A DNA stretch of 64,000 nucleotides, from NCBI GenBank assembly GCA_965223175.1, contig CBDCVS010000003.1, positions 1,756,157 to 1,820,156 of the forward strand, read 5' to 3'. The first letter of the stretch is position 1; every line of letters begins with the position of its first letter. Both the position numbers and the translations under genes were made by a program. This DNA comes from Candidatus Promineifilaceae bacterium (GTDB taxonomy: Bacteria; Chloroflexota; Anaerolineae; Promineifilales; Promineifilaceae). Positions 1 to 64,000 of this stretch are shown one piece after another. The notes beneath the pieces were generated by a model. That model was given only the letters and a program-made list of their open reading frames with translations. It searched no databases and had not been told where the DNA came from.

Positions 1-3000
1 GCCCTCGAGCTAGCTGATGCTTTGGGTCGGGCGCATCATTTAGGCATTATCCACCGGGACCTTAAGCCAGAGAACATTTTGATGGCTGAAGATGGCACGC
101 CTCGCCTGACGGATTTTGGGGTCGCTTACTTAAAACGGTCAGATTCGCGGATTACGCGGACTGGGGCGATCTTGGGCAGTCCCAACTATATTTGCCCTGA
201 GATCATTCAGGACGAGGAGATAGACGGCCGTAGTGACATCTGGTCGCTTGGGGTGGTGTTATATGAAATGTTAGCTGGCGAAACGCCTTTTGCCAGCAAT
301 CAGGTCGTCTCTGTTCTGTTTAACATCGTCAATGAGGCAGAATTGAGCTTGCTTGATGTTCGGCCGAATCTGCCAATTTCGCTGGTTAATCTTATTCATA
401 ATATGCTTAAAAAAGAGCCAGCGCGACGGCCAGCCAGTATGCGCCAGATCGCGGCGGTTTTAGAAGCTATTCGAGACGGCCGTGTTCCAGAATCACCTGC
501 CGCCTATCTTACGCCTCCGACGGAAACGAAAGCGCCATTCATTCCAGTTAAGTCGTCATCTAGTTTCCAGACGCCCCACTTTTTGCCCTGGCAGACAACC
601 TCATTTATCGGCCGTGAAGAAGAGTTGGCCCATATTCGGCGACTGTTGGTTGAGGAAGAATCATGTCGTCTGTTGACTATCGTTGGCCCTGGCGGGATTG
701 GTAAAACCCGCCTGGCAGTTGAAGCTGCTTCCCGACTGCTTGACGCTTTTCCTGATGGGGTCTATTTTGTCTCTTTGACTTCGATTAACGAGATTGATTT
801 TATTGTTCCAGCCATTGCTGAAACCCTCCAACTTCAGTTCTCTGGCCCTGCCGCCCCAAAAGCACAGCTCATTCATTATCTTCGGAGCAAGAAGATGTTA
901 TTGGTGGTTGATCATCTGGAGCAGTTGCTGGATGGGGGAGAGATAATTAGCGATCTTTTGCGTTTGGCCCCCGATACTTCCTTTATTGTGACGGCAAGGG
1001 AGCGACTTCAGCGAACGGAGGAGTGGAGCTACGAGATATCTGGCTTGTCATTGCCGGAAGAGGCATTTGCTTCTGACCAGGCTAAGCTGGAAATGTATAG
1101 CGCCACCCAACTCTTCCTAAAACGGGCCAGTCGCGCCAAAGCTGACTTTGCCCTCACGCCAGAGGAGACACCGAATCTGTTTGAGATTTGCCGGGCGTTG
1201 GAATGTATGCCGCTCGGTTTGGAATTGGCTGCGCCATGGGTTCGTTCCCATTCGGTGGGGGAAATTGCAACCAAGATTGAGGATACGCTTGATAATTTGG
1301 CGACAAGTTCTGCAAATGGTAATCGAAACTATCTTGGTCTGAAGGCGGTATTCTCCCAGACTTGGGCCGGATTGACTGAAAAAGAGCAAACTGCCCTGCG
1401 GCGGCTGACGGTCTTTCGGGGTGGCTGTACGCGTGAAGCTGCGGAAGAGGTGGCTGGGGCATCGGCCCAAACGCTAAACGCGTTATTAGATAAGGCTTTG
1501 ATTCAGCAGGATAACAACGGCCGTTATGACCTTCATAATCTCATTCGCCAATTAGCAGCGGAAGCGCTTCAGGAGGATCCAGAAGAGTGTGAATTGATTT
1601 ATGACATTCACTGCCGTCATTTCCTTTCTTTCCTGGAAGCGCATACGCCTGGGATAAAAGTTGATCAGGAACAGCAGATTTTAGCTGAGATGACGGCCGA
1701 TGCGGATAATCTCCGGGGCGCTTGGGAATGGGCGGTTAAATATCGATTGCTAGAAGATTTAAGCGGCGCGGCCCAAGGTTACTGGCTTTTTCATCAGCTG
1801 CGGGGGCTTTGGTATGAGGGAGAAACTACCTTTGGTCAGACGGCCGAAACATTGATCAATGCGGCTGATTCAGAAGTGGATAGCGAGGCGATGGAGCAGC
1901 TAGCCGGATTCTTAAAGGTAGGGCAGGGCGATCTGATGGCCCGTCGGGGTTGGTTGGTCGAAGGTATCAATGAGATAGCGTTGGGGTTGGAGTTAATGGG
2001 ACAGGATGAGGGATATGATCCGGCGATGGAATCTTTTGCCCTAACTGCCCTGGCTGCGGCTCAACTTTTTCAAGGACAATTTCCTTCTGCTCGACAAACG
2101 GCCCAGAAGAGTTTGGACTTGCTGCCCAAACGAGGGGATCTGTGGGGTAGACTGGTCTGTTTTCAGCTGCTTGGCAGCGCAGCCCAACACCAGGGTCAAC
2201 TTGAAGCGGCCGTTAACTTATTCCAGGCTTGTCTTGATATTTGTAATGAGATAGGCGAACAGCGACTACAGTTAAAGGTCAAAATCGGGATGGGTCAAAT
2301 CGCCCGACTTAGGGGCAGCTACGGCCGTGCGCAGCAGTGGTTGGATGAAAGCCTGGAGATGAACCGCGCTCTCAATAATCCGCTAACTCAGGCAGATATT
2401 TTGCAGGAACAGGGTGTTTTGGCGTTGGAAAGAGGCCAATTTGAGCAGGCGATTGCTTACTTGGAGCAGAGTGAATCTATCTCTGAAGCAATTGGTCGAC
2501 AGGATGGGGGTTTAACCGTTACTTATCTTGGCCGTTGTCATCAATTACAAGGGGCGTTAGATGAAGCTGACGATTTATATCGTCAGGGGTTGGCGGCGGC
2601 TAAAGGGGCTGATTATGAGCCGGGGATTGCCTTGTCGTTGTTGCATATCAGTCTAATCGCTCTGGACAAAGGAAGGTTGAACCAGGCTGAACAGTATTTG
2701 CAGGATGCGCTGGTTATTTGGCAAGAGTTAGAAAATGATGTTTTGAACTGTCGGGCCTTGCTAAATTTGGGGGATGTGACTGCTCAAGTTGGCGAAGCCC
2801 GTGCCGCAGATGCCCGTTCGTATTATCGTCAAGCGTTGCAGTTGGCGACCCAACATGGATTAGCACCGATGGGGTTGCAGGCTATCCTGGGGGTGGCTCC
2901 TTTGCTGGTTCGGTCTGGCGAAATCCATCAGGCACTTCGGCTTCTGATCTTAACTGAACAGCATCCAGCAAGCTCTTATCTGGTGCAGAAGGCAACGCAG

Positions 3001-63210: not shown

Positions 63211-64000
63211 TGCCATTTTCCATTAAACTCGAAAAGCGGCTTGACGTGTCCCGCAGAGCCACTTACCTGGTTCCCATAGTCTCCATTGTCCTGGCCTTGT
63301 TATTTGGCGCTGTTTTGCTATTAGTGGCCGGGGCTAACCCTCTGGAAACCTATCGGGCAATGCTAGAAGGCGCATTCGGAACACCCACCCAATGGCAAAA
63401 CGGGGAATTTTTTAGTGTAGTGGAAACACTCGTCAAAGCTGTCCCCTTAATGCTAACTGGTCTTTCAGTAGCCATCGCTTTCCGTATGCGATTCTGGAAT
63501 ATTGGTGCAGAAGGTCAATTAGTGATGGGCGGCATTGGGGCTGCGGCAATCGCACTCTGGTTTCCCGTCCTCTTTCCATTTTTACCCGAAAGCCTGTGGG
63601 TATATCTTCCCCTGATGATAATCGCCAGTATTCTGCTTGGTGCATTATGGGCCTTAATCCCCGCTTTGCTCAAGGCCTACCTGAAAGTTGACGAAATTAT
63701 TACCACCCTCATGCTCAACTATATCGCCATCCTTTTCTATCAGTACCTTTTCAACATTGTCTGGAAAGATCCTGAAGGGTTTGGTTTTCCTGGGACGGCC
63801 CTTTTCCCGGAATACACCTGGCTGCCTCGCTTTACGGGACGCTTACACTGGGGCATCATCATGGCCATTGTAGCCGCAGTTGTAGTATGGGTAATTATGG
63901 ATCGTACCCGTGCCGGATATGAAATTCGCCTCGTTGGCGAAAATCCCAATGCTGGCCGCTACGCAGGTGTGAGCATTATCTCCAATATTATTTTAGTTAT
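63210..64000 (+). CDS. ABC transporter permease (3' end outside window)
   Basis: The ATG overlaps the upstream TAA (TAATG). I translated the frame by hand and it stays open to the window end. MPFSIKLEKRL...LVAGANPLETYRAML...FRMRFWNIGAEGQ is typical of BMP-system permeases. Confidence 0.8.
   Translation, partial: MPFSIKLEKRLDVSRRATYLVPIVSIVLALLFGAVLLLVAGANPLETYRAMLEGAFGTPTQWQNGEFFSVVETLVKAVPLMLTGLSVAIAFRMRFWNIGAEGQLVMGGIGAAAIALWFPVLFPFLPESLWVYLPLMIIASILLGALWALIPALLKAYLKVDEIITTLMLNYIAILFYQYLFNIVWKDPEGFGFPGTALFPEYTWLPRFTGRLHWGIIMAIVAAVVVWVIMDRTRAGYEIRLVGENPNAGRYAGVSIISNIILV

Follow-up and report, generated by a model that had tools for sequence, protein, structure and literature searches.

The stretch of DNA analysed here (the window) consists of 64,000 nt from a Candidatus Promineifilaceae bacterium of the phylum Chloroflexota, and it is crowded with a short palindrome, CGGCCG, and its eight-nucleotide form ACGGCCGT. 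On the evidence presented below, it is very probable that this word is a clade-wide palindrome of the highly iterated palindrome (HIP) type in Promineifilaceae-type Chloroflexota, which reshapes the proteins of these bacteria and marks the phages of the clade. The analysis drew on 64 kb from the source genome and, for each relative, on 4 to 22 kb around recD2, the gene encoding the RecD2 helicase.

Both words were counted exactly in the window, which has a G+C content of 47.1%. It was found that CGGCCG occurs 143 times (2.2/kb) and ACGGCCGT 42 times (0.66/kb), close to the approximately 140 and 40 copies estimated in a first-pass annotation of the sequence. CGGCCG leads the hexamers of the window in frequency, and ACGGCCGT the octamers; the runner-up words all overlap these two, and the next palindromic hexamer, CAATTG, has 37 copies. 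Base composition predicts 10.9 CGGCCG sites, a first-order Markov model 13.2, and a third-order one 36.5, and 100 shuffles that preserve dinucleotides gave 13.66 ± 3.31 (maximum 24); the corresponding values for ACGGCCGT were 0.76 from composition and 0.53 ± 0.72 in the shuffles. Relative to the dinucleotide shuffles, the observed/expected ratio (O/E) was 10.5 for CGGCCG and about 80 for ACGGCCGT. The sites are dispersed over the whole window, with a near-exponential inter-site spacing (mean 443 nt, median 295, coefficient of variation 0.94) and 4 to 16 sites in each 4-kb bin.

The nucleotides next to the hexamer are not random. Sorted by their outer pair, the 143 sites include 42 of the form ACGGCCGT, 56 of the form ACGGCCGA or TCGGCCGT, and 14 of the form TCGGCCGA. 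A or T stands on both flanks of 112 sites (78%) and at 253 of the 286 half-sites (88%), and the counts at position -1 over all half-sites were A 160, T 93, G 31, and C 2. The earlier statement that almost all sites are flanked by A/T thus stands for the majority, and only its "almost all" was slightly generous. The information content around the 143 sites is confined to the core, the ±1 positions, and a faint A/T preference at ±2 and ±3, with none beyond.

An excess of this kind could be a by-product of base composition, of codon usage, or of a recurrent protein motif, and some features of the sites are in keeping with that explanation: at least 138 of the 143 lie inside genes (4 or 5 are intergenic), the three reading frames are used unequally (15, 83, and 40 sites), and GCC, GGC, and ACG are fairly common codons. 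It was evaluated with a crude gene map of 49 open reading frames (ORFs) covering 91% of the window and with a synonymous shuffle of 500 trials, in which codons were permuted within each gene such that each protein and the codon usage of each gene were kept. This shuffle is conservative because the codon usage of a gene already includes the codons of the motif. Nevertheless, it yielded 32.1 ± 4.65 CGGCCG sites (maximum 48) compared to the 143 observed (O/E 4.5, z = 24) and 6.0 ± 1.9 copies of ACGGCCGT compared to 42, and a whole-codon permutation gave 22.8 ± 4.2 CGGCCG sites (O/E 6.3).

We also counted permissive contexts, that is, amino-acid contexts able to encode a site without a change in the protein. 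In the CGG|CCG frame, 15 of 41 Arg-Pro contexts were filled (37%; 1.8 expected from codon usage), in the xCG|GCC|Gxx frame 83 of 203 (41%; 13.5 expected), and in the xxC|GGC|CGx frame (x-Gly-Arg) 40 of 87 (46%; 8.5 expected). Therefore, the unequal use of the frames only mirrors the number of contexts that each of them offers. Occupancy was likewise homogeneous over 47 genes (137 of 295 contexts; χ² = 44 on 46 degrees of freedom, p = 0.55), and the sites are found throughout unrelated proteins. Contexts that would place C before or G after the core were nearly unused (1 of 11 for Pro-Ala-x and 0 of 14 for x-Ala-Gly), and in sites shared with relatives the neighbouring wobble base is free while the eight nucleotides are fixed. 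In the non-coding DNA of the crude gene map, there were 5 sites compared to 0.43 expected from its own composition, the same fold enrichment. These results refute an origin in composition, codon usage, or a protein motif, and they agree with the first-pass annotation, which had placed the signal at the level of DNA, had reported it in all three frames and in intergenic DNA, and had looked to a codon-aware O/E near 1 as the contrary outcome. The coordinates and frames that it cited (223-231, 3034-3042, and 361-366, and 6879, 7885, 13424, and 22343 between ORFs) were all correct.

One of the five sites counted as non-coding, at 28174, is probably part of a real gene (27965-28891), as judged from the syntenic relative L090, in which this gene is called; it was omitted from our crude gene map. 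The 308-amino acid (aa) ORF concerned overlaps, on the opposite strand, a 377-aa Indigoidine_A (pseudouridine glycosidase-like) ORF with a TTG start at 26961-28094, and in L090 the two overlapping genes are called at 312 aa and 307 aa. Probably, both of the overlapping genes are real and the TTG start of 26961-28094 lies too far upstream.

Alternatively, the sites might belong to a longer mobile or repeated element, such as a repetitive extragenic palindromic (REP) sequence, a MITE (a miniature transposable element with inverted repeats), or an insertion sequence. The intergenic sites at 7885 and 13424 do sit in a common T-rich sequence of 32 nt that contains ACGGCCGA (family D8; 7864-7895 and 13403-13434, 78% identical), and its copies account for two of the few intergenic sites. 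However, a repeat search of the window found no family that carries the sites, only two- or three-copy families at chance level, and around the sites no information is present past ±3 nt. When the window was aligned to relatives, the sites faced non-motif sequence of equal length, with no gaps, which indicates that they arise by substitution and not by insertion. The explanation by a mobile or repeated element is therefore refuted, in agreement with the first-pass annotation, which had held that the signal is not a single repeat family and had looked to most copies inside one such element as the contrary outcome.

The proteins encoded by the window carry the imprint of the palindrome. The most over-represented tripeptide is Thr-Ala-Val (TAV), which occurs 29 times compared to 7.1 expected from composition, whereas each of its five permutations occurs 2 to 12 times, and in 27 of the 29 cases it is encoded by ACGGCCGTN (ACG GCC GTN) compared to 2.5 expected. 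Ile-Gly-Arg is also raised (13 compared to 5.1 expected). At three positions of RecD2, 14 to 17 of the 21 motif-rich relatives have TAV; the outgroup residues there are variable, and a sub-lineage that lacks the motif has STV/TTI, TAL/TAI, and AAV. At the first of these (23164..23171), for example, TAV is present in 14 of 21 clade genomes, compared to DEA, ETG, and others in outgroups and STV and TTI in the motif-less sub-lineage. Moreover, RecD2 sites private to the window genome match private amino-acid changes: TAD compared to NAD/DAD at 23693, NGR compared to NGA/NGS at 24111, and the site at 23251..23258 (Table 1). The position of this last site at a private amino-acid change indicates a gain by non-synonymous substitution rather than insertion. 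These data show that a force acting on DNA can visibly distort amino-acid usage, and the palindrome would be strong enough to rewrite protein sequence.

The conservation of sites between genomes, a comparison that the first-pass annotation had proposed, was evaluated in RecD2 and in three syntenic relatives (L088, L089, and L090); the orthologs identified amounted to only 37 pairs, of which 27 were RecD2. When the RecD2 codons of 24 clade genomes were aligned, 204 sites fell in just 40 alignment columns, and seven columns are common to 14 to 19 of the 24 genomes. In the common columns the eight motif bases are invariant and the next wobble base is free; in column 1420 the variants are ACGGCCGTT (GTT) in 6, GTG in 5, GTC in 4, and GTA in 2. 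We then applied the codon-identity control of Xu et al. 2018, in which codons for identical amino acids are compared inside and outside motifs. Codon identity was 0.82 inside and 0.60 outside for GCC, 0.82 and 0.55 for ACG, 0.44 and 0.17 for CGT, and 0.80 and 0.60 for CAC. The RecD2 proteins of L088, L089, and L090 are 86-94% identical to that of the window, and the DNA is only 73-78% identical; of the window sites, 14 of 21, 14 of 23, and 14 of 18 (61-78%) are kept in place in the three relatives, compared to 19-20% of other hexamers and 26-38% of hexamers composed entirely of G and C. Therefore, the sites are positionally conserved beyond the conservation of codons.

The gene content of the window is that of an ordinary chromosome: gatCAB, def, RecD2, many sensor kinases, ABC transporters, globins, a ThiS/ThiF/JAB sulfur-carrier cluster, and an ECF sigma factor. 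Some NCBIfam matches are cyanobacteria-like (HetF-like, scytonemin-kinase-like, and GAF/kinase). Relatives of the RecD2 helicase (22366-24627) were found in Chloroflexota/Anaerolineae only, and a cyanobacterial host with an alternate HIP is thereby ruled out. Two proteins of the window had no exact match on record. The best RecD2 protein matches are 94% identical (a Logan contig) and then 86-88%, one of these being an NCBI "Candidatus Promineifilaceae bacterium", and relatives with 63-80% identity are metagenome-assembled genomes (MAGs) labelled Ardenticatenaceae, Candidatus Promineifilaceae, Anaerolineae, or Chloroflexota.

The palindrome is enriched in this clade as a whole. CGGCCG ranks first among hexamers at the recD2 loci of nearly every genome whose RecD2 is 63% or more identical, over a range of G+C contents from 47 to 60% and at 1.6 to 5.7 hexamers/kb. 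In the 30 motif-rich loci of this identity class (447 kb), there were 1281 copies of CGGCCG compared to 229 expected (O/E 5.6) and 651 of ACGGCCGT compared to 8.2 expected, or 79-fold. The enrichment is monophyletic on a neighbour-joining RecD2 tree. Sister loci L028, L030, and L031 (59 kb) had 78 hexamers compared to 53 expected (O/E 1.46) and 2 octamers compared to 1.5. Within the clade, enrichment was lost in the sub-lineage of L002 and L004, and it is also lacking in L051 (O/E 0.58), a 5.7-kb contig with a partial RecD2 that was left off the tree; together these three loci (30 kb) had 27 hexamers compared to 24 expected (O/E 1.1) and no octamer compared to 0.7 expected.

The form of the unit varies with lineage. 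The basal members L016, L014, and L009, plus L049, have the hexamer with mixed flanks, whereas in a nested subclade the strict octamer ACGGCCGT makes up 70-85% of the hexamers. Some members of this subclade extend the motif to AACGGCCGTT (in L008, A is at position -2 in 48 of 55 half-sites), and in the window genome the outer pair is relaxed to A/T. For most relatives, the strict octamer ACGGCCGT is the ancestral unit; the preferred form in the window is (A/T)CGGCCG(A/T). The G+C content of L088-L090 is 52-54%, compared to 47% in the window, and G+C seems to have fallen markedly in the lineage of the window, coinciding with the relaxation of the outer pair from A..T to W..W. The region syntenic to the window in L089 also contains an inserted IS66-family transposase (7530-8978), between anti-sigma-like genes and recD2.

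Farther from the clade, the same word is avoided. The other Anaerolineae-type loci, which have a RecD2 identity of 45-58% and comprise Aggregatilineales, Anaerolineaceae, and others (29 loci, 457 kb; L019-L026, L036-L046, L055, L057-L063, L066, L068, and L069), had 78 copies of CGGCCG compared to 325 expected (O/E 0.24) and 2 of ACGGCCGT compared to 10.2 expected. Several of these loci, 12 to 22 kb in length, had no site where 7 to 18 were expected, and so a word that is hyper-abundant in one part of the class is avoided in another. This avoidance suggests that EagI-type restriction systems are common in distant Anaerolineae, and that enrichment replaced avoidance in the motif-rich clade.

The palindrome was also found in phages. 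IMG/VR was scanned for three octamers lying no more than 30 nt from one another, which gave 18 stretches; five of these are host-like (L070, L071, L074, L079, and L086), with 1.7 to 3.7 octamers/kb and ACGGCCGT as the most frequent octamer. One of these, L079 (IMGVR_UViG_3300048592_001391), is Mu-like, encoding a large terminase, a Mu-type portal, Mu F, and a Mu-type protease. It carries 3.5 octamers/kb, its structural genes hold 2.2 to 6.6 sites/kb, and all six TAV tripeptides in these genes are encoded by the octamer. Genes of L071 include a P22-type antirepressor domain, SLT, FtsK, and a ParA-like gene. The combination of even occupancy in all genes of the window with a saturated transposable phage suggests either a process that acts on any resident DNA or a self/non-self function that phages must match.

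As to the cause, we tentatively propose that an orphan CGGCCG methyltransferase, together with a bias in repair or recombination, generates the enrichment; for the explanation as a whole, that is, the description given above and the methyltransferase-linked mechanism combined, we estimate a probability of about 0.5. As shown above, the copies are single dispersed sites; point substitutions, some of which alter the amino acid, create them wherever the coding sequence allows, and they fill about half of the synonymous opportunities and are kept at orthologous positions across a clade of family or order level. In the proposed model, the pressure would act on the whole palindrome, which would be recognised by a symmetric, sequence-specific DNA protein conserved in the clade. 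The best candidate for this protein, by analogy with HIP1 and the alternate HIPs, would be an orphan cytosine methyltransferase of EagI specificity (CGGCCG). Its methyl mark could tilt a step of repair or recombination in favour of the strand that bears the motif, a molecular ratchet or drive to which selection for a "self-DNA" tag in DNA uptake or recombination may add. Such a process would imprint any long-resident DNA, which would explain both why the Mu-like phage has host-level density and why the motif decayed in the sub-lineage that lost it.

The part of this model that concerns recognition was examined in the one-off neighbours of the motif. In the window, CGGCCG exceeds all nine classes of one-off neighbours by similar factors. 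The C-to-T neighbours, compared to a second-order Markov model, were 58 and 64 expected for TGGCCG/CGGCCA, 53 and 50 for CGGCTG/CAGCCG, and 24 and 22 for CGGTCG/CGACCG, an O/E of 0.9 to 1.1 that is no lower than that of the transversion neighbours. In the octamer subclade (330 kb), there are 594 octamers, and one-base deviants number 154 at the outer position compared to 28 to 40 per inner position. The similar excess over all nine classes and the concentration of deviants in the outer pair argue for recognition of the whole palindrome.

CGGCCG is the EagI/XmaIII word, and its core contains cytosines in a context used by m5C enzymes of that specificity. The palindrome has the form of a type II methyltransferase site, which raises a narrower explanation, very-short-patch (VSP) repair, in which a Dcm-type methyltransferase and Vsr restore T:G to C:G at one CGGCCG cytosine. 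The sequence CCWGG is mildly inflated in E. coli by Dcm/Vsr. Dcm-type enzymes predicted to recognise CGGCCG do exist in other prokaryotes (PMC6471742). However, the single-position bias of VSP repair should deplete one C-to-T neighbour, the T-containing neighbour of the methylated cytosine, and none is depleted; the target lies above every neighbour class to a similar degree, and the preference reaches ±1 and ±2, outside any hexamer methyltransferase site. Moreover, a ten-fold excess of the hexamer and a 79-fold excess of the octamer are far beyond the E. coli effect, and neither the window nor the related DNA covered (about 1.3 Mb) yielded a vsr or dcm homologue. VSP repair is accordingly an improbable source of the sites.

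A broader and more serious alternative is that plain selection keeps each site as a functional binding site, with no methylation-dependent repair ratchet, either as a "self" tag in DNA uptake or recombination (as now proposed for HIP1) or as the site of a nucleoid-organising protein. Several of our results fit this alternative: conservation in place is about 3-fold that of control hexamers, codons are better conserved inside motifs than outside, inner one-off deviants are not raised despite 594 parent octamers, and amino-acid sequences are bent to fit the motif. Findlay and Redfield reportedly described in 2009 a similar bending of amino-acid sequences by the uptake sequences of Haemophilus and Neisseria. 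In addition, HIP1 improves transformation, and the conservation of HIP1 was read as selection by Xu et al. 2018 (PMC5861425). On the other side, the known uptake sequences are asymmetric 9- to 12-mers, often paired in terminators, whereas the present motif is a perfect palindrome located almost entirely in genes; no competence or binding protein has been linked to it; and an occupancy of about 46% in every gene, together with the saturated structural genes of the phage, fits a process acting on all resident DNA better. We therefore regard plain selection as unlikely to be the explanation, although it is the main competitor of the methyltransferase-linked mechanism.

Several points weigh against the methyltransferase-linked mechanism. 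A deamination or VSP footprint was sought in one-off neighbours and in orthologous variants, and no position departed, in either direction, from what ordinary codon preference gives. Scans of every gene with Pfam and NCBIfam found no cognate METHYLTRANSFERASE, Vsr, or restriction gene in the window, and no DNA methyltransferase, Vsr, or restriction endonuclease was found in the related DNA of about 1.3 Mb, a tiny recD2-centred sample. Regular expressions for C5 (PCQ plus ENV) and amino-methyltransferase (xPPY) motifs had no match in the ORFs of the window, of 69 genomic loci, and of 6 motif-rich viral loci, and tblastn with M.HhaI and E. coli Vsr against the window and the fetched DNA was negative. 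Because the DNA sampled is so small and centred on recD2, these methyltransferase negatives are an absence of data rather than evidence of absence. Positional conservation and the imprint on the proteome are equally predicted by plain selection on each site, and drive and selection are inseparable in these data, in which the nearest RecD2 is 94% identical in protein and 76% in DNA. Finally, uniformity over the genome is an extrapolation from the sampled DNA.

A gene for a putative S-adenosylmethionine (SAM) methyltransferase is present in the window (35707-36885), head to tail with genes for a CHAT/HetF-like protein (32698-34908) and a PD-(D/E)XK nuclease (34915-35694). This methyltransferase has a THUMP-like C-terminal domain and lacks DNA-methyltransferase motifs, and it was not linked to the palindrome because of this RNA-type appearance.

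Table 1. Coordinates in the window of the full set of sites, individually inspected sites, and conserved sites in recD2.
Feature	Position	Strand	Remarks
Full dispersed CGGCCG set, 143 sites	1..64000	no strand	exact coordinate lists
ACGGCCGT as xxC GGC CGT, Asp-Gly-Arg	224..231	+	5' gene, Ser/Thr kinase-TPR protein
CGG CCG as Arg-Pro	361..366	+	reading frame verified
ACG GCC GTT as Thr-Ala-Val	3034..3041	+	reading frame verified
Intergenic ACGGCCGT	6878..6885	no strand	crude gene map
Intergenic ACGGCCGA in 32-nt sequence recurring at 13403-13434	7884..7891	no strand	repeat search
Intergenic ACGGCCGA in second copy of 32-nt sequence	13423..13430	no strand	repeat search
Closest site pair, two CGGCCG 8 nt apart	15384..15397	no strand	coordinate lists
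Intergenic ACGGCCGT just upstream of recD2	22342..22349	no strand	site missing at aligned position in L088
RecD2 His-Gly-Arg site	22592..22599	+	common to 17/24 genomes, column 233
RecD2 Thr-Ala-Asp site	22990..22997	+	common to 17/24 genomes, column 631
RecD2 Thr-Ala-Val site	23164..23171	+	common to 14/24 genomes
RecD2 site private to window genome, TAV vs PIL/PII in relatives	23251..23258	+	private amino-acid change
RecD2 Thr-Ala-Val site	23452..23459	+	common to 18/24 genomes, column 1420; outgroups AAL, LAL, TAL
RecD2 Thr-Ala-Val site	23863..23870	+	common to 17/24 genomes; outgroups AHV, GPV, AAV
RecD2 Ile-Gly-Arg site	24272..24279	+	common to 16/24 genomes, column 2258

Some other features of the window were recorded. 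Several palindromic hexamers are missing: relative to a first-order Markov model, there were no copies of GCGCGC (16.6 expected), CGCGCG (13.1), CTGCAG (16.0), GAGCTC (14.5), or CACGTG (8.3). GCCGGC occurs 3 times compared to 17 to 31 expected over the range of Markov models, GTCGAC, GACGTC, and ACTAGT have one copy each, and the O/E of CCGG is 0.64. The pattern resembles avoidance, within one genome, of several restriction sites.

Among the repeats, a 52-nt intergenic sequence ending in TGTTTGGCGGAACAGT is present at 5598-5649 and 7921-7972 (77% identical), adjoining tandem globin genes and DUF3179. A direct repeat of about 109 nt (14605-14716 and 14713-14825, 85-92% identical) sits in an 811-nt gap upstream of a formate/nitrite transporter gene (13603-14466, minus strand), and a 31-nt piece of this unit (GCCACCAGGATGGTGGCG...) is found inverted at 58548-58578, upstream of the gene at 56756-58474. 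The unit had no match in Rfam, and Rfam and tRNA scans of the window returned nothing; the 109-nt unit and its inverted piece may be a shared regulatory element. The gene at 29040-30656 encodes two tandem amino-acid-binding (SBP) domains and contains an internal duplication of 300 nt (29223-29522 and 29949-30248, 93% identical), which would reflect either a recent duplication or gene conversion between the SBP domains.

Thirty years after HIP1 became known, its cause and function are still under debate, with a methylation-linked repair ratchet, a DNA-uptake tag, and chromosome architecture among the proposals; in the literature covered, its abundance and the alternate forms are described only in cyanobacteria. 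If the present interpretation is true, the Chloroflexota palindrome is a second, independent natural experiment, and the HIP hypotheses become comparable across phyla. Useful traits in this respect are its different sequence and phylum, the deep clade, the distant relatives that avoid the same word, and the internal loss lineage (of the L002/L004 type), which would be a built-in control among the ratchet, uptake-tag, and architecture explanations. The comparative questions that it raises are whether one orphan methyltransferase or competence genes track the motif, and whether sites decay after loss of the gene. In practical terms, the octamer is a strong taxon-specific k-mer signature that aids the binning of Promineifilaceae/Ardenticatenaceae MAGs, which are abundant in activated sludge and sediments, and it could serve as a host-assignment signature for the phages and mobile elements of the clade. 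Unless it is methylated, this DNA would be cleaved by EagI-type enzymes roughly once per 450 bp.

The palindrome can be set against several known classes of repeated word. REP and MITE elements are units of 20 to 40 nt or longer that have conserved flanks and are mostly extragenic, whereas here there is no unit beyond 8 to 10 nt. Compared to the sites of restriction enzymes and orphan methyltransferases, the word is a canonical type II site, and it shows classic avoidance in the distant Anaerolineae; unlike CCWGG under Dcm/Vsr in E. coli, the sign is reversed in the clade, and the magnitude is far above known VSP effects.

The DNA uptake sequences (DUS) of Neisseria and the uptake signal sequences (USS) of Pasteurellaceae are present at about 1 to 3 copies/kb, mostly in genes and in all frames, and are conserved between related species; they distort tripeptide usage and can accumulate by molecular drive. 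The palindrome resembles them in being genic, in using all frames, in its positional conservation, and in its distortion of tripeptides. It differs in that DUS and USS are asymmetric and 9 to 12 nt in length, and between genes they often form inverted pairs that act as terminators, whereas only the 4 or 5 sites noted above are intergenic and the word is perfectly symmetric. We know of no competence receptor or transformation phenotype for these organisms.

The closest resemblance is to the HIPs, and the analogy with HIP1 drawn in the first-pass annotation held at the level of sequence, in the sense of an analogue; identity with HIP1 did not hold, since both sequence and phylum differ. HIP1 itself, GCGATCGC, occurs once in the window and CGATCG 8 times, and the host belongs to Chloroflexota. 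HIPs are short, G+C-rich palindromes that are more over-represented than any other oligomer of their length, at about 0.5 to 2.5 or more copies/kb (Elhai 2015). The present motif and HIP1 are alike in being G+C-rich palindromes of 8 nt in which the 6-nt core is stricter than the outer pair, and in leading all octamers in abundance, at 1 to 4 copies/kb. As for HIP1, the single sites are dispersed in coding DNA (in all frames) and in non-coding DNA, with no indels, and are spread by substitution; their excess goes beyond what codon usage or amino-acid sequence would give. Sites are conserved at orthologous positions between diverged genomes (Xu et al. 2018), beyond the conservation of codons (PMC4390886, PMC5861425), one-nucleotide deviants are biased to the first and last nucleotides (Elhai, PMC4390886), and the motif is lineage-wide with variant forms and occasional loss. 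The spacing of HIP1 is quasi-periodic at the kilobase scale, with periods of tens of kb (Xu et al. 2018, PMC5861425). In cyanobacteria, a HIP or alternate HIP is in every case accompanied by a methyltransferase, usually an orphan, that can modify it (PMC4390886). For HIP1 these are DmtC and DmtA, whereas no counterpart was identified in the window or in the related DNA of about 1.3 Mb, and because the CGGCCG motif contains no GATC, a Dam-type partner is not possible, unlike for HIP1.

The alternate HIPs in a survey of 97 cyanobacteria are GGGATCCC, TCGATCGA, GGCGCC (Calothrix PCC 7103), rCCGGy (Oscillatoria PCC 10802), and GCsGC (Cyanothece PCC 7822) (Elhai 2015, PMC4390886), and a later preprint adds CAGGCCTG; CGGCCG is absent from both sources. 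In the limited full-text collection covered, we found no account of over-representation of CGGCCG or ACGGCCGT, nor of HIPs in Chloroflexi, Promineifilum, or Ardenticatena, in line with the earlier remark that no described equivalent was known, and a HIP in Chloroflexota appears to be undescribed so far. Like the alternate HIPs, the palindrome resembles a restriction site, is avoided in relatives and hyper-abundant in one lineage, and has flank variants that differ by lineage; its hexamer O/E of about 10 falls in the extreme-outlier range of Elhai (GGCGCC, O/E 15.5, Calothrix D253). Unlike the alternate HIPs, which are found in single strains or small groups, it characterises a deep clade of many MAGs at the level of genera, with a RecD2 protein divergence of 25-37%. 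On balance, we lean towards the view that this is the first HIP system outside the cyanobacteria and of independent origin, distinguished by the depth of its clade, by its rewriting of proteins, by its presence in the phages of the clade, and by flanks that would have evolved by lineage, from the hexamer only to ACGGCCGT and then to AACGGCCGTT or WCGGCCGW.

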